A stretch of 64,000 bases of DNA, from positions 1 through 64,000 of the IMG/VR virus record IMGVR_UViG_3300050019_000176; one strand, 5' to 3'. The stretch comes from a virus. Of this stretch, positions 4,293-15,674 are shown piece by piece. Below the pieces are notes generated by a model, which had not been told where the DNA came from, ran no database searches, and worked only from the letters and a program-made list of their open reading frames with translations. The translations under genes were made by a program, and so were the position numbers. Positions within the stretch are counted from its first letter, which is position 1. Every line of letters starts with the position of its first letter.

Positions 4293-6795
4293 CTAAAACA
4301 TCTCCTTTTGTCTTTCGCCGCCAAATAGCGGCAGGTCTTCAACTGCTTTTTGCGGGCGCTGCGGCGCGCGTGCGCTCCGAAACTCCCACGTTACCCGTTC
4401 GGCATCGAGACGCGATTCTCGCTCCGTGTCAGCTTCGCCAGCAATCGGCGGAATTTCCCGCTTTGTGGTTGTCATTGGTTGAACTATACGCCTCCGTGAT
4501 GGCTATGTCAATAGTTATTTCACGCTCCCCATAAATTAGCGTCTACGTCCGTCATGGAGCGTAGGCCCGCATCTTCGCCCGCGGCTGCATCTTTGCCTGA
4601 CGTGACCGGCTCCGCCTGCGGCCCGTGGCAAGTCAGACCGAACACGGCGCCCGATCGGTACCAGCGTGCCATGGCGCCAGCGGGAATGAATGCCCCGCAC
4701 TCATGGCAGGTAGCAGGACGCCGAAGTCGGATCGGGATAGCGCGCCGGCCCCGTTGCTGGTTCATCAGTATCCCCCCAACGCATCCGCCACGGCCCCCGT
4801 GCGCCAGGTCCGCAGGGTGAACCGTTTGGCGTTCTTGGCCTTCCTTCGCCGCTCCATCAGATGGTACTGATAGGCGACCTGCAGCCGAATGCAGAGAAAC
4901 AGCAGCGATGGGTTAACCATTACGCTACCTCGCTCTGTGCCACTTTCGGCCGCAGGTCCGTTACGTGCATCACGACGTCACAGCCAACGTAATGACCGAC
5001 GCGCCAGCCGTCCGCAGGCGCATCAACCGGCCTTATATCCGTTTGCACAGTGACGGGCCCGGATATGAGATCCTCGAAGAGATGCCACCGCAAGATGCCG
5101 AACTTTGGGTGCTTCACGTCCAGGCTGCCGACCTTCACGCCTTTGGTGCGCGTGTTCTCGCTGCCGGCGTCAAACCGTGGCGCAACTATGGTTACTTCGG
5201 CGCCGCGCAGCAAGGCCAGTAAACCGCCGCTGTAGCTGTCGATGATAATACGTCCGTTGGTCTTCACTTCGCCTTGGTCGTAGAACCCTCGATAACCGGA
5301 GGAGAATGTTACCCGGGTGCAGTACCCTAGCGTCAAATCCCAGGTATCGCCCAACTTGAGCCCGTCGCGCTTCTCCTCGAACATCTGTGCCAGCGTACCA
5401 TCGGCCCAGATGTAGGAGCAAAACAGCTTACGTTCGTACCGTGTTTTCATCGTCGTACCATCCTTTCACAACGTCTTCGCCAGCCATCCAAGGCCATCGG
5501 CGAACACCCAGAGCAACCCTATCAGGATCACCAGGGCTACAAAAGTCATCGATGAGAGAATGCTTTTGCGTGGTCACTGTGTAACCTCCGGTGGCAGATA
5601 GGCAGCATCGATGGCCGCCGCTTCCATGTCTTGTGCAAGACTTCTGGACAATTGGACATTCGCCGCAGGCTCGGTCCAGGTGGCCTCATTCCCGAGTGGA
5701 TGCAAAGACCGGATGCGGCCCGACGCCCCACAGTTGATGCAATACGCTGGCCTGATACCGGCGCTTACTGGAACGATCACGATGGAGCCGCACGCGCGGC
5801 AGGTAGAATGGGCGACCGCCAGAAGCCCGCCATCGATGCCTTGCCGCTCCCGCTCTCCTGCTATCAGGTCCAGGCAGAGTGCGGCGAAACGATCGGCCCG
5901 CGTCATCGTGCCCACCTCGCCATATTGTGAAAGTCAATCTCCACCAGGCGCATACGCGGCGCCGATGTCCAAGTGGACTCCGCCACCTTCGCCCGCCGCA
6001 TCATCGCCAGTACTGCATGGATAACTCGCCTCACGATTGCACCTCGCCATCCATCAACCGCGCATCGAAGGTTGGTCGGTCAACTCGGGATCCAAAAGCC
6101 ATCGCCGCCCGCCGCGCCATGGTCTTAGCAACGCAGCACCCGCCAGCGATAGACCAGAAATCCCCGTGCGCCTCGAACGCAGGAGCGGTGGCTATCTGCG
6201 CACCGGCCCCGTACATGTCCCACACCCGCAACGGGATAGAGTTCAAGTGCTCGTCTCCGCGATCCAGCGCCCGACGCACCTTCCGCAGGAATGCCGGATC
6301 CGAACCGACAAACGACACCCCCGCCATTTTCGCCACGCTCGCGTAATACTCCTCATGCGTTACCTTCCCGTTCATGTAGTCTTTTCTCGTCATTGTGTTA
6401 CCTTCCTTTCCTTACAGCGTCATAAACGGCCCGATACCGCATTTCGGATCACCACACACTGAGCACACCGACCCGCGCCGCCGCTCCGGAGTAGTGGCAG
6501 CGTCCGGAAACATCGCTACTTGCATCATATTATGATGCCCGCGCGCTGTCTCGCTCGCGTCCACCATCCCGAACAACCCGCCGACCATGAGTACCTCGGC
6601 ATCCTGCCGCGCCACTTCCACATCGCGCACGACCAGCACCCGGCCCCGGCTGTACTTCGCCTTCGGTGCCTCCACCTGATCCAGTAGCGACACCACAACC
6701 GGCGCGCGTACTTCGGTGATCGCGTCCAGCCAGCTAAGCTCCCGGTACTCGGTCGCTTGCGTCTGCTCGCTCCGTTGTGTGTTCGTTGCTATCAT
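4293..6795 (-). CDS. Cluster of small leftward early-type hypothetical genes (4293-4475, 4520-4765, 4920-5450, 5574-5915, 6031-6393, 6412-6795)
   Basis: Co-oriented ORFs with RBS-like sequences; 4520-4765 and 5574-5915 carry CxxC zinc motifs. Confidence 0.6.
4483..4512 (-). promoter_or_regulatory. Sigma70-type promoter, leaderless start for the gene at 4475
   Basis: TTGACA-N18-TATAGT, 7 nt before ATG. Confidence 0.7.
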
Positions 6796-8235: not shown

Positions 8236-8264
8236 TTGACTTCGTTCAGTAATACTGGTATGAT
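8236..8264 (+). promoter_or_regulatory. Leaderless promoter for the resolvase
   Basis: TTGACT-N17-TATGAT, 7 nt before ATG 8272. Confidence 0.65.
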
Positions 8265-8271
8265 TTGAAAT

Positions 8272-8853
8272 ATGAACACGGCAATATATGCGCGAGTGAG
8301 CACGGGTGAGCAGGACTGCACGATTCAGTTGGAGGAATTGCGGCGGTACGTTTCGGCGCGTGGGTGGGTGGTAGTTGGGGAGTACGTCGATGATGGGGTG
8401 AGTGGGGTAAAGGCAAGCAGGCCGGCGCTGGACCGGCTGATGGAGGATGTAAGCGCCCGGCGTATCGATGTAGTGGTGGTGTGGAAACTGGACCGGTTCT
8501 CGCGGTCGACGATCCAGTTTCTGCGGCAAGTGGAGGCATTGGATGCGGCTGGGGTGCGGTTCATTGCGACGAGTCAGGGGATCGACACGGATAAGTCAAA
8601 CCCGACGGCTCGATTGTTCATGCAAATCATTGCGGCTGTGGCAGAATTTGACCGGCAGATGATCCTGGAGCGGACGTCGATGGGGCGGGCGAAGGCGGTA
8701 GCGGACGGGGTGGTGATGGGGAGGCCGCGGCTAGTGATTGACCGGCTGGTGGTGAAGGAGATGCGGGAGGCGGGAAAAAGTGTGCGGGAGATTGCGGCGA
8801 AGGTAGGGGCGAGTGTAGGGAAGGTGCACGGGATGCTGAAGGAGGGGTTATGA
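8272..8853 (+). CDS. Serine recombinase (resolvase/invertase family) with C-terminal HTH
   Basis: AIYARVST catalytic Ser motif, VVVWKLDRFSRS, GRP, terminal HTH. Confidence 0.95.
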   Translation: MNTAIYARVSTGEQDCTIQLEELRRYVSARGWVVVGEYVDDGVSGVKASRPALDRLMEDVSARRIDVVVVWKLDRFSRSTIQFLRQVEALDAAGVRFIATSQGIDTDKSNPTARLFMQIIAAVAEFDRQMILERTSMGRAKAVADGVVMGRPRLVIDRLVVKEMREAGKSVREIAAKVGASVGKVHGMLKEGL

Positions 8854-9464: not shown

Positions 9465-10004
9465 ATGATGTCAAGGACCACGAAACGTGACGAAATCCGA
9501 GCGTACATAAAGCGCACAATAGAGGAAGGCGTACTCCTTCACAGTGCCAGGATGGCAGACCGAGTAGCGGCCGAAACCATTCGCCAACGAGCTTCTGCAT
9601 TGGCTGGCGACATTTCTTGGCATGTGTGCGAGGAGTACCGCTACCTGGAACTGGCCGACATATTCGAATGGAAGCGGGAAAGGGTGCGGAGGTAGGTGAT
9701 GGACACGCAAGAGGCAATTCGGACGATCAAAGCAGCGCTGGTACATTCCAATCTGGATAATCAGCGGTGCGTGGACGCTCTTACTGCGCTGGAGGTGCTC
9801 CGGAAGGACGGGGAGCGGCTACAGACCGCGCCAGAGTGCGAGTGCCGGAAGGCGCTGGAGCAAGCACTTCAGGCGAAGCGGGAGGCGGAAGCCGAACTTA
9901 CCGCGCTTGAAAACGTCCATGCCACGGCAGAGGCCGTAATTGTCCGGCTCCGCGCCGAGGTGGAGCGGCTGACGGTCCAATTGGCCGGGTGCAGTATAGC
10001 ATAA
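9465..10004 (+). CDS. Two hypothetical genes (9465-9695; 9696-10004 coiled coil)
   Basis: Abutting ORFs with RBS-like sequences. Confidence 0.5.
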
Positions 10005-10022
10005 ACTAGCCTAAACGAAGAA

Positions 10023-10099
10023 TGGAGGGGAGCGCCGGGCTCGAACCGGCATAGTCCAATTACGTTATCTCGTTTAGAAGACGAGAACGATAGCTCCCC
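10023..10099 (-). ncRNA. Rearranged tRNA-like RNA, anticodon UCU (Arg), no conventional D arm
   Basis: GGGGAGC/GCTCCCC-T-CCA, TTCGAGC T arm, CTCGT-CTTCTAA-ACGAG anticodon arm. Confidence 0.7.
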
Positions 10100-10100
10100 G

Positions 10101-10177
10101 TGGTGGCCCTCCCCGGACTCCAACCGGGCGCCTCTCCGTTAGGACCGGAGCGCTCTATGCGGATGAGCTAGAGGGCC
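10101..10177 (-). tRNA. tRNA-Arg(CCU), atypical D and T loops
   Basis: Full cloverleaf with CCA; T loop TTGGAGT. Confidence 0.85.
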
Positions 10178-10178
10178 A

Positions 10179-10685
10179 TTACGCGAATAAGTATTTGTCC
10201 CAAAGTTTGGAGTCACCAGCCAGCAACCTGTGTTTCGCGTGAATGCTGATCTGCCGTGGTTGCTTCAATAGCGTCATTCCGGCCTCCGCCGGCGTCCTGT
10301 CCTGCTTCCGGTTATTGCACGGGAAGCAGGACGCCACTAAATTCTCCCATGTCGAGAGCCCGCGCCGCGACCGTGGAACCACATGGTCAAGCGTCAGACT
10401 TCCCGAGGGTAGGCGGGCGCCGCAGTACTGACAGGAACTGCCATCCCGCAGCAGGATTCCCTTGCGGGAGACCGCCCGGTTCTGCCGCGGGAATTTCCGG
10501 TACCTGATGAGCCGGATCACGCTGGGGATTGGGATGTCGATCTTCGCTGTGTGGACCGTGTAGGCAGACACCTCCTCTACGAGCGCCGCCCCCTTGAAGA
10601 TCAGGGTCATCGCTCGGCGGGCTGGTACGATATTGATGGATTCGTAGCTGGCATTGAGAACCAACACGAGACGGTTCAGTGACAT
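10179..10685 (-). CDS. HNH endonuclease (McrA-like)
   Basis: LVLVLNASYE ... RDGSSCQYCG..LTLDHVVPRSRRG..WENLVASCFPCNNRK. Confidence 0.9.
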   Translation of the reverse strand: MSLNRLVLVLNASYESINIVPARRAMTLIFKGAALVEEVSAYTVHTAKIDIPIPSVIRLIRYRKFPRQNRAVSRKGILLRDGSSCQYCGARLPSGSLTLDHVVPRSRRGLSTWENLVASCFPCNNRKQDRTPAEAGMTLLKQPRQISIHAKHRLLAGDSKLWDKYLFA

Positions 10686-10690
10686 AACGT

Positions 10691-10766
10691 TGGTGAGGGG
10701 CACGGGCCACGATCCCGCATCTCCCGACTTAAAGGGACGGCGCTCTGCCTATTGAGCTAACCCCTC
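10691..10766 (-). tRNA. tRNA-Lys(UUU)
   Basis: Cloverleaf with CCA; C33; T loop ATCGTGG. Confidence 0.8.
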
Positions 10767-11464
10767 AAAAGACCTCTACAGTATTCGGATTCTCCCCCGG
10801 CTGCGACTCGTTTTACGTTGGCGGTTTTCTTGGCCTCTTGCAGTTTTCTCCATTCCCGGCCGCTCCCTTTATTCCTTCCCTTGTAAGTGGGGAGCTGCAT
10901 ATCGCAGTTCCCGCAAACCAAGCGAAGGTTGGCTACGCTCCAGTTTGTAGAGTTACCGTCTATATGATCCAAGATCAACGGCACCCTCTCGCCCATCCAA
11001 GTGTCCGTTCCACACCGGGAACATTTGTTACCAGCGGTGTCCTTTAGATAACGTTTGGCCCACCCTCCCCTAGCGCTCTCGGAGCCGCCCAACACCTCGC
11101 CAGTATTGCGGATGTGATTCAGCTGTAGTATCCATCTACTGCCGTAAAAGCAGGCTGTCGAGCAGAACGGTCCTGGCCTAAACGTGTCACCACCGCAGTT
11201 CTTGCATGGGTGGCGCTTTTCTTCTAGAGACTGCCCATGCCTACGGACTCCAATATTGCGCACCGCAGCAGCGCAACTGTGATTGCAGAACGTACTCTTG
11301 CCTCTTTTCTCGTATGGAATCACTTGATCACATTTTATGCACCGTTCTGGATTGAGAGCGTACGCCACTCGTTTTTGCTGTGCAACTTCTTTGGTTTTCT
11401 GGATGCCTGCCGCCAGCCATTTGCTGATAGTGTCGGCCCTGGCCTTCGTCATTCTTCGCGGCAT
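10757..11464 (-). CDS. HNH homing endonuclease with N-terminal zinc motifs
   Basis: CSRC..LILDHIDGNSTNWSVANLRLVCGNCD; stop codon lies inside tRNA-Lys. Confidence 0.85.
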   Translation of the reverse strand: MPRRMTKARADTISKWLAAGIQKTKEVAQQKRVAYALNPERCIKCDQVIPYEKRGKSTFCNHSCAAAVRNIGVRRHGQSLEEKRHPCKNCGGDTFRPGPFCSTACFYGSRWILQLNHIRNTGEVLGGSESARGGWAKRYLKDTAGNKCSRCGTDTWMGERVPLILDHIDGNSTNWSVANLRLVCGNCDMQLPTYKGRNKGSGREWRKLQEAKKTANVKRVAAGGESEYCRGLLRG

Positions 11465-11483
11465 TCTACTATCCAGTGTAACA

Positions 11484-11559
11484 TGGTACGGGGCAGAAGG
11501 ATCGAACTTCTCTGTACCTGTTCGTAGGAGCAGCACCGTCACCAGACGATAAACCCGGC
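11484..11559 (-). tRNA. tRNA-Val(UAC), irregular
   Basis: CCA end and T arm; bulged anticodon stem with loop CCTACGA; acceptor mismatch. Confidence 0.6.
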
Positions 11560-11560
11560 A

Positions 11561-11650
11561 TGGTCCCCGGCCCAGGTGCCGACCCTGGATCTAGCTCCGA
11601 TCTGGAGAAACGGTTATAGGCCGTCTTGCGGCGCCGGCCGCCCACCGGGG
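11561..11650 (-). tRNA. tRNA-Ile(UAU) with long variable arm
   Basis: CCCCGGT/GCCGGGG-A-CCA; loop CC-TAT-AA; extra CTCC/GGAG arm. Confidence 0.75.
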
Positions 11651-12186
11651 GAAGGTTGATCCTTCAATACAATCAAGCCATCATGGATCTCTCCGTGACA
11701 GTTAGCGCATGTGAGCACGCACTTGTCTAGTTCTTTTTTTATCCGAACCCAAGATGCCGTGACTCGGCTGATCGAAAAATCCTTTTGCGATTGGTCACTG
11801 TGGTGGAACCCTAATGAGCGCAAGCACTTAGCATACCCGCAGAATTCGCACGCCCCTCCCTTGTATTCTACCGCCTTGAGCTTTAATCGCTTCCTCCACG
11901 CAGTTACCCCACGAACCGATCTAGCTTTTGGATCGGAGGATTGTCTGCTCGCCACCCGCGCGTTATGGCGGCATTGATTGCTGCAATATCGGGAGCGCCT
12001 TGTAGAGGGGGAACCGCAGACTGCGCACTTCCCTTCCGGTTTCCGTTTTGGAAACTTCTTGTTATTGTACTTGGCGGCGCATGACTTATTGCAGAACTTC
12101 TTAATCCGAACATCCCGCGCAGACTGCCCATCCATCGCCACAATCTTTCGTCGACATGATCGGCAGTAGTGTTGATTCGAAGCCAT
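11614..12186 (-). CDS. HNH homing endonuclease
   Basis: KGGACEFCGY..LGFHH..KKELDKCVLTCANCHGEIH; stop codon in the tRNA-Ile anticodon loop. Confidence 0.85.
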   Translation of the reverse strand: MASNQHYCRSCRRKIVAMDGQSARDVRIKKFCNKSCAAKYNNKKFPKRKPEGKCAVCGSPSTRRSRYCSNQCRHNARVASRQSSDPKARSVRGVTAWRKRLKLKAVEYKGGACEFCGYAKCLRSLGFHHSDQSQKDFSISRVTASWVRIKKELDKCVLTCANCHGEIHDGLIVLKDQPSPGGRPAPQDGL

Positions 12187-12209
12187 CAATAATATATTAA
12201 CACGAAAAC

Positions 12210-12298
12210 TGGCTGGCGGAAGAGGATTCGAACCTCCATGCGGGATCACTCCACGGCAGATTAACAGTCTGCTGCCTTACCAGTTAGGCGATCCGCCA
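12210..12298 (-). tRNA. tRNA-Asn(GUU) with long variable arm
   Basis: Cloverleaf with CCA; 18-nt variable region. Confidence 0.85.
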
Positions 12299-12302
12299 AT
12301 CT

Positions 12303-12378
12303 TGGTGGGTCCAGCGGGGCTCGAACCCGCACATCCCTGAGTAAGAATCAGGTACGCTGCCACTCGCGTCCTGGACCC
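12303..12378 (-). tRNA. tRNA-Lys(CUU)
   Basis: Cloverleaf with CCA. Confidence 0.9.
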
Positions 12379-12384
12379 GAAACT

Positions 12385-12459
12385 TGGTAGGGGTGACGCG
12401 AATTGAACACGCATCGAGAGATTGAAAGCCTCTCATCCTAACCATTAGACGACACCCCC
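12385..12459 (-). tRNA. tRNA-Glu(UUC)
   Basis: Cloverleaf with CCA. Confidence 0.9.
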
Positions 12460-12460
12460 A

Positions 12461-12536
12461 TGGCGTCCCCAGCCGGATTCGAACCGGCGATTTCTGGCGT
12501 GAGAAGCCAGCGTCCTTGCCGCTAGACGATGGGGAC
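12461..12536 (-). tRNA. tRNA-Glu(CUC)
   Basis: Cloverleaf with CCA. Confidence 0.9.
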
Positions 12537-12541
12537 AAACT

Positions 12542-12616
12542 TGGCGCGGTGGACGGGTAACGATCCCGCTTCGTCTCCGTAGACAGCGGAGTGCATATCC
12601 TACCTGCCCCCACCGC
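12542..12616 (-). tRNA. tRNA-Asp(GUC)
   Basis: Cloverleaf with CCA and G73; U at position 37. Confidence 0.8.
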
Positions 12617-12623
12617 GCAAACT

Positions 12624-12659
12624 TGGTCGGCCCGCCGGGATTCGAACCCGGAGGGATAC
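12624..12659 (-). pseudogene. 3' half of a split tRNA-Arg(CCG)
   Basis: CCGGG-TTCGAAT-CCCGG-CGGGCCG-A-CCA; acceptor strand pairs with CGGCCTG at 13229-13235. Confidence 0.85.
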
Positions 12660-12660
12660 T

Positions 12661-12736
12661 TGGTGATCGTGGCTGGATTCTAACCAGCGACCTCTACCTT
12701 CGGAGGGCAGTGCTCTTTACGCTGAGCTACACGATC
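12661..12736 (-). tRNA. tRNA-Arg(CCG), intact replacement copy
   Basis: Cloverleaf with CCA; T loop TTAGAAT, D loop AGCGTAAA. Confidence 0.85.
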
Positions 12737-13177
12737 AAGACCTAATACTGTAATCCATTTCCATCCACGCTCAAGAGCAGTCTTGATAGTGTGACACTTC
12801 GAACACCGAACATCACACTTGCTGATCTCTTCTTGCCGTCTGCGTTGACTCCACCCTTGCATATTCGAAACACTGGCGACCTTTTTCCCACGCACGTGAT
12901 CGAATTGAAGAACGAGCGGGTTTGATTCACCACAATCTACACACGGGTGTTCACGAAAGAACGGCACCATTTCTGCGAAGAATGCTTCCATCCACTTGTC
13001 TCTCGAACGATCCGCCTTCAAGCGGTAGTATTCTTTGTTTCTCTGGTAATGATCCTTGTTATATGCCCTGTGGCATATTTTGCAGTCATCGGATCTTATG
13101 CCGCGGGATTTGTACTTGAATGAAAACTCATCGACGTTCTGTTCTTTTCCGCAGCGACAACATGTTTTCTTAGTCAT
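12680..13177 (-). CDS. HNH homing endonuclease
   Basis: MTKKTCCRCGKE..; HPCVDCGE..LQFDHVRGKK..KCDVRCSKCH. Confidence 0.85.
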   Translation of the reverse strand: MTKKTCCRCGKEQNVDEFSFKYKSRGIRSDDCKICHRAYNKDHYQRNKEYYRLKADRSRDKWMEAFFAEMVPFFREHPCVDCGESNPLVLQFDHVRGKKVASVSNMQGWSQRRRQEEISKCDVRCSKCHTIKTALERGWKWITVLGLDRVAQRKEHCPPKVEVAG

Positions 13178-13187
13178 CCTCCGAAGT

Positions 13188-13235
13188 ATACCATCCTTCG
13201 GAGAGATGTGCCCTGTCCAGTTGAGCGACAGGCCG
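13188..13235 (-). pseudogene. 5' half of a split tRNA-Arg(CCG)
   Basis: CGGCCTG, D arm GCTC/GGGC, anticodon arm CATCT-CTCCGAA-GGATG, then truncated. Confidence 0.85.
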
Positions 13236-13239
13236 AAAA

Positions 13240-13316
13240 TGGTACGCCCGCGAGGATTCGAACCCCGGTCTGATCGTTCGTAGCGATCTATCCTTTCCGG
13301 ATTGGACGACGGGCGC
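13240..13316 (-). tRNA. tRNA-Arg(ACG)
   Basis: Cloverleaf with CCA. Confidence 0.9.
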
Positions 13317-13324
13317 GCGAAAAA

Positions 13325-13408
13325 TGGTAAGCACCCACCCAGTGATTCCGACACTGGCTCTGTACCGACTCCCGCCGGTCGAGACTCCATGCCTCCCGTG
13401 GGTGCATA
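13325..13408 (-). ncRNA. tRNA-like RNA with CCA end but a GGGA tetraloop instead of an anticodon loop
   Basis: GCACCCAC/GTGGGTGC stem, D-like and T-like arms, CCGGC-GGGA-GTCGG. Confidence 0.65.
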
Positions 13409-13416
13409 AGCATAAA

Positions 13417-13492
13417 TGGCTGGCCGCCCAGGGTACGATCCTGGAACCTCTGCGTTCAGAGCGCAGCGCGCTGCCAATTGCGCCAGCGGCCA
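13417..13492 (-). tRNA. tRNA-Gln(CUG)
   Basis: Cloverleaf with CCA. Confidence 0.9.
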
Positions 13493-13493
13493 A

Positions 13494-13567
13494 TGGCCGG
13501 GAGGGAGCGAATCGAACGCTCGAAGCTGGCTTCAAAGACCAGCGGCTTACCATTAACCTACCTCCCG
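13494..13567 (-). tRNA. tRNA-Gln(UUG)
   Basis: Cloverleaf with CCA. Confidence 0.9.
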
Positions 13568-13570
13568 AAT

Positions 13571-13644
13571 TGGGGTGACCGATCGGTTCGACCCGACAAC
13601 CTCCGGGGCCACAACCCGGCGCTCTACGTTTGAGCTACGGCCAC
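13571..13644 (-). tRNA. tRNA-His(GUG), degenerate loops
   Basis: C73 and CCA; 6-nt T loop; no encoded G-1. Confidence 0.75.
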
Positions 13645-13647
13645 ACT

Positions 13648-13722
13648 TGGTGCCGGAAGCGGCGCTCGAATCCGCGTCACTGGCTTTTCAGACCAATGCT
13701 CTACCGTCTGAGCTATTCCGGC
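13648..13722 (-). tRNA. tRNA-Phe(GAA)
   Basis: Cloverleaf with CCA. Confidence 0.9.
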
Positions 13723-13727
13723 GAAAT

Positions 13728-13807
13728 TGGTGGACCTCCAGAGAATTGAACTCTGCTGACTATCTTCCTTGCAAGGGAAGCGACCACCCCATGCAGTCTC
13801 GAGGCCC
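13728..13807 (-). tRNA. tRNA-Ala(UGC)
   Basis: G3-U70 pair, CCA. Confidence 0.9.
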
Positions 13808-13812
13808 AAAAT

Positions 13813-13885
13813 TGGTAGCGGGGGTCGGTGTTGATCCGACGCGGCTGGGTTTATGAGGCCAAGCTGTGAACCGTCTCTCCCCGCA
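13813..13885 (-). tRNA. tRNA-Met(CAU), initiator-like, degenerate
   Basis: 1-72 mismatch, CT-CAT-AA loop, weak D and anticodon stems. Confidence 0.65.
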
Positions 13886-13976
13886 ATAAATTCTGGCATA
13901 CAACCTCACGGCCCGGTATGCCGGCGGGTCGCGGCATGGACTGGAGTAGGGCTCACAGCGCCGCAGACGTCGAACT

Positions 13977-14050
13977 TGGTGCGTCCCCGAAGAGTTGAAC
14001 TTCGATTGCTCCCCTATCGAGGGAGAGTCCTGCTATTGGACGAGGGGCGC
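13977..14050 (-). tRNA. tRNA-Ile(GAU)
   Basis: Cloverleaf with CCA; loop TC-GAT-AG. Confidence 0.8.
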
Positions 14051-14051
14051 A

Positions 14052-14127
14052 TGGGGCCGGTGGCGGAACTCGAATCCGCGGATTCTTCCTTACCAAAGAA
14101 GCGGTGAACCATCCCACCTCCACCGGC
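14052..14127 (-). tRNA. tRNA-Thr(GGU)
   Basis: Cloverleaf with CCA. Confidence 0.9.
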
Positions 14128-14132
14128 GAAAC

Positions 14133-14207
14133 TGGGGCCAGATCGGAGAATCGAACTCCGGTCACAGGGATACGAATCCTGCACTCTGCCGACTGAGCTA
14201 ATCTGGC
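14133..14207 (-). tRNA. tRNA-Thr(CGU)
   Basis: Cloverleaf with CCA. Confidence 0.9.
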
Positions 14208-14208
14208 A

Positions 14209-14283
14209 TGGAGCCGGGCGCCGAACTCGAAGCGGCCTCACTGACTTACAGGGCCAGCGCATCGCCATCTATGCTTGCCCGGC
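14209..14283 (-). tRNA. tRNA-Thr(UGU)
   Basis: Cloverleaf with CCA; C33. Confidence 0.85.
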
Positions 14284-14356
14284 TGGAGCGGATGGAGGCA
14301 TCGAAGCCTCGTATCGACCTTGGCAAGGTCGCGCTCTACCATTGAGCTACACCCGC
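14284..14356 (-). tRNA. tRNA-Gly(GCC)
   Basis: Cloverleaf, U73, CCA. Confidence 0.9.
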
Positions 14357-14363
14357 AGAAACT

Positions 14364-14437
14364 TGGAGCGGACGGGGGTACTCGAAACCCCTTCTCTGGG
14401 TTGGAGGCCCAGGGCACACCCTATATACCACGCCCGC
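14364..14437 (-). tRNA. tRNA-Gly(UCC)
   Basis: Cloverleaf, U73, CCA; C33. Confidence 0.85.
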
Positions 14438-14455
14438 CTTACTGCCTACACTCTG

Positions 14456-14465
14456 TTGTCAAAGA
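14456..14465 (-). promoter_or_regulatory. boxA-like antitermination element (operon 2)
   Basis: TCTTTGACAA after the first tRNA, preceded by a GC hairpin. Confidence 0.6.
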
Positions 14466-14500
14466 CCCTGCCGCGCCTTCATGCCACTGCGCGGCGAACT

Positions 14501-14577
14501 TGGTCGGGGCGGCAAGATTCGAACTTGCGACCTTCTGGTCCCAGGCCAGACGGGTTAAACCACTTCCCTACGCCCCG
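14501..14577 (-). tRNA. tRNA-Pro(UGG), first tRNA of operon 2
   Basis: Cloverleaf with CCA; C33. Confidence 0.9.
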
Positions 14578-14612
14578 AAAATCAAAAAGGCCCGAATCTT
14601 TCGATCCGAGCC
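14578..14612 (-). terminator. Intrinsic terminator (attenuator) before tRNA operon 2
   Basis: GGCTCGGATC-GAAA-GATTCGGGCC followed by TTTTTGATTTT. Confidence 0.85.
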
Positions 14613-14641
14613 CACTGGAAAACCGGAAATCCCAAGTGGGC

Positions 14642-14734
14642 TTACGGAGCATCGCGGGCGACTGGATTCATCGCCGGTGCGATGGGTTCCGTCCCCTGCT
14701 GCTTCCTTGTGCCGAAATGGAATATGTATCTCAT
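14642..14734 (-). CDS. Leader peptide of tRNA operon 2 (MRYIFHFGTRKQQGTEPIAPAMNPVARDAP)
   Basis: ATG 10 nt after the -10 box; stop codon overlaps the antiterminator arm. Confidence 0.75.
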   Translation of the reverse strand: MRYIFHFGTRKQQGTEPIAPAMNPVARDAP

Positions 14735-14744
14735 GTACGATTTC

Positions 14745-14771
14745 AGTATATCACGGTTTCGCCGAATGCAA
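14745..14771 (-). promoter_or_regulatory. Promoter of tRNA operon 2
   Basis: TTGCAT..TGaTATACT-GAAATCGTA (extended -10). Confidence 0.75.
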
Positions 14772-14779
14772 GCACTTTT

Positions 14780-14864
14780 TGGCGGAAGATGGCCGAATCG
14801 AACGACTCCGCTTGCGCGGACCCCGGAATTCGAACCCGGTTGCCCACCATGGGCGGCATCTTCC
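14780..14864 (-). tRNA. tRNA-Ser(CGA), 8/4 structure
   Basis: 8-bp acceptor GGAAGATG/CATCTTCC, 4-bp T stem, long variable arm, G73. Confidence 0.85.
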
Positions 14865-14868
14865 GAAC

Positions 14869-14953
14869 TGGCGGAGAGCACCAGAGTCGAACTGGCACCC
14901 TTTCGGGGCTCCGGTTTTCCAGGCCGGCCGGGATCCACATCCCCGTACTCTCC
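14869..14953 (-). tRNA. tRNA-Ser(GGA), 8/4 structure
   Basis: 8-bp acceptor, CCAG/CTGG T stem. Confidence 0.85.
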
Positions 14954-14960
14954 AAACTTA

Positions 14961-15045
14961 TGGCCGCGGGCGAAGGAATCGAACCCTCATCCCGAAGGAG
15001 CGCCAGTACTCAAGACTGGTGGCGGACCATCCGCCCGCGCCCGCG
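14961..15045 (-). tRNA. tRNA-Ser(UGA), 8/4 structure
   Basis: CGCGGGCG/CGCCCGCG acceptor, 4-bp T stem. Confidence 0.85.
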
Positions 15046-15046
15046 G

Positions 15047-15120
15047 TGGAATGGGGATCGGGAATCGAACCCGACATAACAGCTTTGCAGGCTGCCCTCT
15101 AGCCGATTGAGTTTCCCCAC
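15047..15120 (-). tRNA. tRNA-Cys(GCA)
   Basis: Cloverleaf, U73, CCA. Confidence 0.85.
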
Positions 15121-15121
15121 G

Positions 15122-15192
15122 CACCCCAGCGACGATTCGAACGCCGAAAATCCGCTTTGGAGACGGACCACCTCACCATCGGTAACCGGGGC
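15122..15192 (-). tRNA. tRNA-Trp(CCA), no encoded CCA tail
   Basis: TCCGT-CTCCAAA-GCGGA, TTCGAAT T arm. Confidence 0.8.
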
Positions 15193-15197
15193 AAACT

Positions 15198-15281
15198 TGG
15201 TAGGCTCGGTGGGATTCGAACCCACAGGGGAAAACGCTCTTGAGGCGTTTGGTTGTGCCAATTCACCTTATCCACGAGCCT
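15198..15281 (-). tRNA. tRNA-Leu(CAA), short variable region
   Basis: AACGC-CTCAAGA-GCGTT, CCA; extra nucleotides before the D arm. Confidence 0.75.
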
Positions 15282-15287
15282 AAAACT

Positions 15288-15364
15288 TGGTGCGCCGCCC
15301 GAGATTCGAACTCGGAAAAGTCAGGGCCTAAACCTGATGGATTTGCCAATTTTCCTAGCGGCGC
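15288..15364 (-). tRNA. tRNA-Leu(UAG), short variable region
   Basis: Cloverleaf with CCA. Confidence 0.85.
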
Positions 15365-15370
15365 ATAACT

Positions 15371-15458
15371 TGGTGAGTGCGGATGGATTTGAACCACCGT
15401 GGCCCCGAAGGACAGAAGGGTTACAGCCTTCCCGTTTCAGCCGCTCACGCACGCACTC
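15371..15458 (-). tRNA. tRNA-Tyr(GUA)
   Basis: Class II cloverleaf with CCA. Confidence 0.9.
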
Positions 15459-15470
15459 ATTGTCAAAGAT
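15459..15470 (-). promoter_or_regulatory. boxA-like antitermination element (operon 1)
   Basis: ATCTTTGACAAT after the first tRNA. Confidence 0.6.
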
Positions 15471-15473
15471 CTT

Positions 15474-15562
15474 TGGCGGAGAGCCGGCGACTCGAACGCC
15501 GGAGTCCCGAAGGAAGCACGCGTTTAGCAGACGCGCCGGACGGCCCACTGTCCATGCTCTCC
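15474..15562 (-). tRNA. tRNA-Ser(GCU), first tRNA of operon 1
   Basis: Class II cloverleaf with CCA. Confidence 0.9.
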
Positions 15563-15575
15563 GAAACCTGGGCTC

Positions 15576-15674
15576 CTATAAACTCGACAGGGATGATAGG
15601 TGCCCGGACGGACACCACAAATACTCGGCGGAGCGCCGATAGGAAAGAAATCCGCGATTGGAATTCTTGTGCAT
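15576..15674 (-). CDS. Leader peptide of tRNA operon 1 (MHKNSNRGFLSYRRSAEYLWCPSGHLSSLSSL)
   Basis: ATG 9 nt after the -10 box; ends 13 nt before tRNA-Ser. Confidence 0.7.
   Translation of the reverse strand: MHKNSNRGFLSYRRSAEYLWCPSGHLSSLSSL

Follow-up and report, generated by a model that had tools for sequence, protein, structure and literature searches.

Phage transfer RNA (tRNA) genes are usually seen as constitutive codon-usage helpers or, lately, as spare parts against tRNA-cutting defences, and to our knowledge the control of their expression is essentially uncharacterised. The closest described systems are the enterobacterial ilvGMEDA (Ile/Leu/Val), thr (Thr/Ile), trpL, hisL, leuL and pheL leaders, in which a promoter is followed by a codon-rich short open reading frame (ORF), a terminator and an overlapping antiterminator. 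In attenuation of the trp/his type a ribosome at the stop codon favours the terminator and stalling favours read-through; the ilv and thr leaders sense more than one amino acid. The same anatomy was found on the minus strand of IMG/VR virus record IMGVR_UViG_3300050019_000176, a 75.5-kb record of which 64 kb (positions 1 to 64,000, here called the window) were analysed: between two blocks of tRNA genes, a promoter (P_A), a 30-codon ORF (leader ORF A) and a terminator overlapped by an antiterminator stand in front of the downstream block (array A). In our judgement this element is probably a ribosome-mediated (leader-peptide) transcription attenuator placed before a tRNA array.

As in the enterobacterial leaders, the position of the stop codon would let a terminating ribosome block the antiterminator. 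The locus differs from them in four respects: the genes regulated would be tRNA genes and not biosynthetic enzymes; the leader devotes one or two codons to each of 14 amino acids (~21 anticodons) and has no runs of a single codon; the ORF has a leaderless or near-leaderless start in place of one led by a Shine-Dalgarno sequence, and the pairing of regions 1 and 2 (listed below) is weak; and the product, tRNA, would feed back directly on the sensor.

Control of a translation-apparatus gene by stalling at codons read by the tRNA that its product serves is known from pheST/pheM of Escherichia coli, where, unlike here, the product is a synthetase and a single amino acid is sensed. A Phe-rich leader before the tRNA-Phe genes of E. 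coli was considered as a precedent and rejected: pheU and pheV have no leader ORF or attenuator, and in both the tRNA directly adjoins its promoter. A T-box works without a ribosome, by binding one uncharged tRNA, and the genes under its control are those of synthetases or of amino-acid metabolism; what it would have in common with the locus is terminator/antiterminator control responding to the tRNA pool, but no T-box match was found here. A search of the full-text literature gave no description of leader-peptide attenuation of tRNA genes, phage or cellular, and the statement of an earlier annotation of this stretch made from its letters and ORFs alone (the sequence-only reading), that it knew of no such design, holds for the literature searched.

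The locus and its tRNA arrays

The window encodes phage genes, including those of a terminase, a portal protein and a serine recombinase, and the stretch is present in full in a peat-metagenome sequencing run, from which it may originate. ARAGORN at default settings found 30 tRNA genes, all on the minus strand (15562-10023) and arranged in two blocks. The blocks are separated by 202 nt, inside which lie the promoter, leader ORF A and both hairpins. The features of the locus are as follows, those from the hexamer to the U-tract in the order of transcription:

15562-14780, minus strand: array B (upstream), with Ser(gct), Tyr, Leu(tag), a weak candidate, Trp, Cys, Ser(tga), Ser(gga) and Ser(cga)
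14577-10023, minus strand: array A, with 22 firm tRNA genes, 3 weak candidates and 4 HNH genes
starting at 14577, minus strand: tRNA-Pro(tgg), first gene of array A
14766-14771, minus strand: -35-like hexamer TTGCAT of P_A, 15-nt spacer
14745-14753, minus strand: extended -10 TGaTATACT of P_A, with -10 and TG as in P_B, the promoter before array B
14735-14756, minus strand: promoter/start-site core common to leaders A and B, 20/21 identical to 15675-15695
14734-14642, minus strand: leader ORF A, ATG AGA TAC ... CCG TAA, 30 codons plus TAA
14711-14723, minus strand: region 1, codons 4-8, AUUCCA and GGC, pairing weakly with region 2 in untranslated RNA
14629-14642, minus strand: region 2, antiterminator 5' arm, AGCCCACU and GGGA, whose first base is the last base of the stop codon
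14609-14620, minus strand: region 3, antiterminator 3' arm, UUCC and AGUGGGCU, ending in the 5 nt with which the terminator stem begins
14613-14588, minus strand: intrinsic terminator hairpin, 11 bp, GAAA loop, -17.3 kcal/mol
14578-14587, minus strand: U-tract UUUUGAUUUU, preceded by the U of the stem end and ending 1 nt before tRNA-Pro

The coordinates and sequences that the sequence-only reading had given for the ORF, the antiterminator and the terminator before tRNA-Pro were borne out, read on the minus strand. The promoter it had placed upstream is present as well, corrected here to an extended -10 with a weak -35, TTGCAT. A consensus promoter scan missed P_A because of this -35 and the 15-nt spacer. 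The 21-nt core that P_A shares with P_B starts at the TG of the extended -10 and ends immediately ahead of the ATG. Two counts had to be lowered: for the 25 tRNA genes proposed downstream, 22 are found by ARAGORN at default and the others are weak or appear at a lower threshold, and the amino acids served by array A number 14 and not 15, no tRNA-Val being supported there.

The genes of array A follow in the order Pro, Gly x2, Thr x2, 'Ser(cga)', Ala, Phe, His, Gln x2, Arg x2, and then Asp, Glu x2, Lys, Asn, Ile(tat), Lys, Arg(cct), Arg(tct). Once the ARAGORN threshold was lowered, Thr(tgt) (14209-14283) emerged as a good candidate in this array, and Met(cat) (13813-13885) and a further candidate (11484-11559) were obtained with poor scores. 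The gene called 'Ser(cga)' in array A (13977-14050, minus strand) is 74 nt long and has no long variable arm; it cannot be a class II tRNA and is better read as Ile(GAU), with C and not U at position 33.

There is no space for a promoter between P_A and tRNA-Pro, and the 63-nt gap after tRNA-Pro, when its sequence was read by eye, contained a lone TTGACA with no -10. Array A would thus be transcribed only via read-through of the terminator, and the whole of it presumably forms a single operon. A second promoter downstream of the terminator was also considered and was rejected on the same lack of a -10 in the gap.

Composition of the two leader peptides

Leader ORF A encodes the peptide MRYIFHFGTRKQQGTEPIAPAMNPVARDAP and ends 65 nt before tRNA-Pro. 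Its residues fall in the amino-acid set of the downstream tRNAs in 28 of 30 cases, Tyr and Val being extra. The partition used for the statistics was set by the tRNA genes: Ser, Leu, Tyr, Trp and Cys (S/L/Y/W/C) are the set of array B, and the 14 other amino acids that of array A. As null we took 67,566 stop-free 29-codon windows from all six frames of the 64-kb window.

By this measure S/L/Y/W/C account for 1 of the 29 post-start residues of leader A (P = 0.011), and all 14 array A amino acids are present (P = 0.0016). The joint event (at most one S/L/Y/W/C residue together with all 14) has P = 9e-5 against the genome windows and P = 0.0012 against dinucleotide shuffles of leader A, which is a conservative comparison. 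By ordinary wobble rules the leader touches 21 of 24 array A anticodons (null mean 12.5, P = 6e-4), and the presence of AGA, AGG and ATA together has P = 0.013. In nine large phage genes these three codons occur at 1.5, 4.0 and 4.0 per thousand, respectively, despite their dedicated tRNAs in array A. The match of leader A to array A in amino acids and codons exceeds chance.

The sequence-only reading had described a peptide lacking Leu, Ser, Trp and Cys and with Tyr as its only extra residue. Those four residues are indeed absent, Tyr being the one residue in 29 from the array B set, and Val has to be added as a second extra. The pairing of AGA, AGG and ATA with matching tRNAs in array A stands as it was described, and the codon match, for which a comparison with random ORFs of this genome had been proposed, exceeds both the genome-window and the shuffle nulls.

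A second promoter and mini-ORF were found in front of array B:

15576-15711, minus strand: P_B with leader ORF B (ORF 15674-15576, 32 codons, 17 in S/L/Y/W/C)

P_B (TTGACA-16-TG-TATACT, 15711-15684, minus strand) matches 11/12 positions of the consensus and is the strongest promoter of the region. The peptide of leader B, MHKNSNRGFLSYRRSAEYLWCPSGHLSSLSSL, has the opposite composition: S/L/Y/W/C make up 17 of its 31 post-start residues (P 5e-4 by the genome null and 2e-4 when leader B itself is shuffled), and it touches all 8 of the 8 array B anticodons, including codons for all four Ser isoacceptors. Compared directly in a 2x2 table, for which no background model is needed, leaders A and B differ in the predicted direction (Fisher P = 1e-5). 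The bias was confined to the ORF frames of both leaders, the other five frames being ordinary. A Y-L-W-C run in leader B matches the order of the tRNA genes, a marginal result (P 0.018). With two promoter copies, two mini-ORFs and two tRNA blocks, leader B is an internal replicate of the arrangement.

Two further features of leader B were noted. Its ATG overlaps the TAA of an upstream 111-aa gene (TAATG), P_B lying inside the 3' end of that gene, and a weak terminator-like hairpin is present inside leader ORF B (15639-15625).

These data bear on whether the arrangement could be due to chance, an open frame in the spacer between promoter and terminator having a fitting composition and being met because many windows were read. 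The codon match of leader A was indeed noticed post hoc, in a very large scan, several single statistics are of the order of 0.01-0.03, the order of its peptide does not match gene order significantly (P 0.08), and the searches described below yielded no orthologue of the locus. Such a coincidence is nevertheless very unlikely in view of the joint P of 9e-5 for leader A and of 5e-4 for leader B, obtained with a partition that the tRNA genes themselves dictate, of the Fisher test between the leaders and of the occurrence of the same design, with conservation and covariation, in an unrelated, published phage family (see below).

Terminator, antiterminator and predicted translation of leader ORF A

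The antiterminator pairs AGCCCACT (14642-14635) with AGTGGGCT (14616-14609); its hairpin (14642-14609) has 12 bp with one bulge and an energy of -17.2 kcal/mol. The terminator hairpin is followed by TTTTTGATTTT: after the GAAA-loop hairpin come UUUUUGAUUUU, one base and then tRNA-Pro. It lies ~120 nt past the promoter, and terminator-like structures of such quality number five in the 64-kb window, both strands included. The two hairpins are mutually exclusive because 5 nt are common to both, and computation of the alternative folds agreed with the switch that had been proposed from the letters.

In order to model translation, a ribosome footprint was masked at each leader codon in turn and the fold probabilities were computed. 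With the ribosome at the stop codon or on the last 3 codons, P(terminator) was 1.0; with the ribosome at any of codons 1-27, P(antiterminator) was 0.5-0.9. The naked RNA at equilibrium gave P(terminator) 0.98, the terminator being favoured there because codons 4-8 pair with the antiterminator 5' arm. In these models the stop codon is placed where a terminating ribosome would block the antiterminator and a ribosome stalled upstream would not.

From the anatomy, the statistics and the alternative folds we infer the following translation, kinetics and regulatory response. Host-type RNA polymerase would start at P_A and would probably also arrive from P_B, and the near-leaderless 30-codon ORF would be translated. 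If decoding is prompt, the ribosome at UAA would cover the antiterminator 5' arm, the terminator would form and transcription would stop 1-10 nt before tRNA-Pro. If the ribosome is slow anywhere in codons 1-27, the antiterminator would form first and polymerase would pass into array A. The output of the array would in this way be tied to the supply of the charged tRNAs that the leader polls, phage tRNAs exerting negative feedback and a shortage causing induction. Since the products are the tRNAs polled, the feedback on decoding capacity would be direct. Codons 2, 4 and 10 (AGA, ATA and AGG) are likely to be the most sensitive positions. A Pro codon before the stop slows termination in E. coli; leader peptide A ends in Pro-stop, which would prolong the masking of the antiterminator.

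A more specific role may be imagined for this attenuator, namely that of a split pan-tRNA sensor serving counter-defence, in which a sub-array is switched on when any of the ~8 or ~21 host tRNAs sampled by its leader is depleted. Depletion would here mean cutting by an anticodon nuclease or degradation after infection, and the phage would replace the damaged part of the pool with its own tRNAs, several of which have unusual anticodon loops. We hold this role to be conceivable, if doubtful: the link with anticodon nucleases is purely conjectural, and whatever makes a charged tRNA scarce would trigger the device, simple supply-demand feedback by the tRNAs of the phage itself included.

Translation of leader ORF A was considered in the light of other promoters of the phage. 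In each of the three best sigma-70-type promoters of the window outside the tRNA region, an ATG stands 6-7 nt past the -10:

8236-8272, plus strand: leaderless-type promoter of a serine recombinase/invertase, 193 aa
6830-6795, minus strand: leaderless-type promoter of a 127-aa ORF
4511-4475, minus strand: leaderless-type promoter of a 60-aa ORF

One of these ATG codons is the true N-terminus of the serine recombinase, which is matched from residue 1. From the sequences, promoter-proximal genes of this phage seem to be expressed as leaderless mRNAs from promoters of an early type, a habit that leader ORF A may share.

A number of observations weigh against an attenuator at this locus, and most concern translation or the stability of the folds. 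Leader ORF A has no Shine-Dalgarno sequence, which about half of the large phage genes have. Its ATG stands 10 nt past the -10 and that of leader B 9 nt, in contrast to the 6-7 nt of the clear leaderless genes; the mRNA would probably have a 5' untranslated region (UTR) of 2-4 nt, a type that is poorly translated in some bacteria, and with the likeliest start, a G 7 nt past the -10, the UTR would measure 3-4 nt. Translation of leader ORF A, a prediction, is the weakest link of the proposal; no RNA sequencing runs holding the DNA are listed. As to the folds, the pairing of regions 1 and 2 is weak (6+3 bp), and from the moment region 3 has been transcribed the antiterminator has the lowest energy of all folds, the end states being 2.4 kcal/mol apart with the terminator favoured; the off state of untranslated RNA is therefore insecure. 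An antiterminator of equal strength appeared in 3.9% of shuffles of the upstream 50 nt, which is suggestive only. As to the codons, CCC, GTC, GCC and GCT of leader A have no simple cognate in array A, and its Tyr residue belongs to the array B set; the codon match was, as stated, found post hoc. No canonical terminator follows the stop codon of leader B, and no orthologue of the locus was found in phage records, IMG/VR, JGI metagenome contigs or GTDB genome contigs, searched by protein, DNA pattern and profile.

Part of these observations would suit a fixed or factor-controlled terminator valve that ends the operon of array B, leader ORF A being incidental and nothing in translation being sensed; a set fraction of polymerases, or polymerases altered by a phage antitermination factor later in infection, would then enter array A. 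The fold of the naked RNA (P 0.98) could indeed end that operon, the missing Shine-Dalgarno sequence and the missing matching terminator of leader B would both speak for a valve, and an antiterminator protein may be present among the proteins of the phage, most of which belong to no known family. We nonetheless regard a valve as unlikely, as it leaves unexplained the frame-specific match of leader A and the mirror-image bias of leader B, an antiterminator that begins in a stop codon and a promoter copy placed upstream of the terminator.

Attenuation by a translated leader was also set against a T-box-like RNA that would itself sense uncharged tRNA directly, the ORF playing no part. A terminator/antiterminator pair before translation-related genes is what such an RNA would show. 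A cmscan with Rfam 15 of 9500-16500 at E up to 1 gave only tRNA-type matches and, in 14578-14779, no match to any family, T-box included; the leader measures only ~150 nt, one T-box senses one tRNA and not a set of 14 amino acids, and the frame-specific codon bias would remain unexplained. This explanation is extremely improbable.

Cassettes of phiCbK-like phages and relatives of the locus

In phage phiCbK (NC_019405) the tRNA genes also lie in blocks, and three annotated 'rho-independent terminators' stand shortly before blocks. The cassettes of phiCbK-like phages (Dolichocephalovirinae) resemble the locus in having a promoter of the leaderless type, an ORF of 30-45 codons composed of the amino acids that the following block serves, and a terminator directly before the first tRNA, with several such cassettes per array. 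The annotation in the records goes no further than 'hypothetical protein' (gp335) and 'predicted rho-independent terminator', and the phiCbK genome paper makes no mention of attenuation or of a leader. They differ from the locus described here in that there is no sequence similarity, in that the antiterminator arm lies inside the ORF (codons 17-21) and does not start in the stop codon, and in that each leader samples 6-7 amino acids in place of 14.

The block of cassette 1 consists of 13 tRNAs (Pro, Pro, Thr, Lys, Lys, Leu x3, His, Ala, Ser x3). In front of it lies the 45-codon 'hypothetical protein' gp335 (2541-2678), which has 41 of its 44 post-start residues in S, A, T, L, P, H or K, the set of seven amino acids served by this block. 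In cassette 2 a TTGACA promoter, an ATG 7 nt past the -10, the ORF MSKTYRQFVRQIQVVRNIRAGRSRMADEGFRD and a terminator stand before the block Phe, Val, Ile, Ile, Val, Gln, Gln, Ile, Arg, Arg, Gly. This ORF (4342-4440, 32 codons) is unannotated in phiCbK and is conserved in at least 4 genera. Its counterparts in Rogue, BL10, SC, PW, Colossus and a Brevundimonas phage, terminator included, are 66-83% identical at the nucleotide level, with frame and length kept and a 3-nt in-frame deletion, and the leaders have more Asn codons where the array carries tRNA-Asn. ARAGORN at a lower threshold added Thr, His, Ala, Ser, Ile and two Arg tRNAs that are absent from the annotation of the phiCbK record.

In phage SC the ORF segment that pairs with the terminator 5' arm changes along with both terminator arms. 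Read from the alignments, this three-way covariation is the signature that an antiterminator would be expected to leave. The rule is not followed by every cassette: the mini-ORF before the phiCbK Glu-Asp block (1082-1144, MTHLLTRYEREATGLDTTTA) has 3 of its 20 residues as Glu or Asp. Leaders matched to their arrays, which the sequence-only reading had suggested looking for before other phage tRNA genes, are present in the two phiCbK cassettes, where in the second the ORF and terminator arms covary; the Glu-Asp cassette is not obviously matched. The phiCbK cassettes show that such a design occurs, and is selected for, in other phages, and the prior for the peat locus rises accordingly.

The covariation also bears on the possibility that a translated, codon-matched ORF acts by another route, such as shielding from Rho or RNase, timing of tRNA processing or a functional peptide. 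The strong signal in composition next to a modest one in structure (antiterminator P 0.039, weak pairing of regions 1 and 2) would fit such a route, as would a leader B that is codon-matched and has no canonical attenuator. Against it, the terminator, one of only five in the window, lies exactly between the ORF and the first tRNA, and the stop codon overlaps an antiterminator arm; moreover, the joint changes of the ORF segment and the two terminator arms among phiCbK-like phages are those expected of an antiterminator. As regards a functional peptide, a phmmer search with leader peptide A against 1.84 billion representatives gave a single match, a repetitive 827-aa protein that is not a leader. 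Taken together, we find another route quite unlikely.

If the attenuator acts as proposed, a leader that polls a panel of codons gates tRNA genes whose product is measured directly by the ribosome, which amounts to a feedback loop. Attenuation of the trp type would then extend from metabolism to the decoding machinery, and one attenuator would sense many tRNA species. The design would offer a handle on when and why phages make tRNAs, with phiCbK and Caulobacter as a tractable model, and annotators would gain a rule for mini-genes that are now unannotated or called 'hypothetical protein'.

Searches for relatives of the locus itself gave little. A blastn search of 14400-15800 against 50,697 phage records returned generic tRNA matches only. 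The 15-mer of the promoter core had 88 chance matches in viral contigs, none of them at a related tRNA array, and the 19-mer had 12 chance matches in genome contigs, without arrays. Nothing was obtained from viral and metagenome contigs with the neighbouring 111-aa protein, the 562-aa ORF at 21204-22892 or a two-sequence profile, nor with tRNA-Ser patterns, including patterns with N at the positions that vary in relatives. The protein of the neighbouring gene has one homologue, with 56% identity. Among contigs of sequencing runs, four runs at 80% likeness cover the tRNAs and none reaches the leader; two peat runs contain relatives with about 87-91% identity in the Ser tRNAs, on short contigs that end before the leader.

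One further peat run, one run from lake water and one from soil contained short contigs with 0-1 differences to 15053-15529, in small shares that are insufficient to define a habitat range.

Some features of the arrays themselves were also noted. The weak candidate between Leu and Trp of array B (15198-15281, minus strand) may be a Leu(CAA) tRNA with an odd anticodon loop; such loops in phage tRNAs are of interest with regard to anticodon nucleases. Four HNH-type ORFs lie among the distal tRNA genes of array A (10179-13477, minus strand), one of the four being an outright Pfam HNH match. Beside these genes, the tRNAs for AGA, AGG and ATA are structurally odd, with 90-nt Arg(tct) and Ile(tat) that carry extra arms (10023-10177 and 11561-11650, minus strand).

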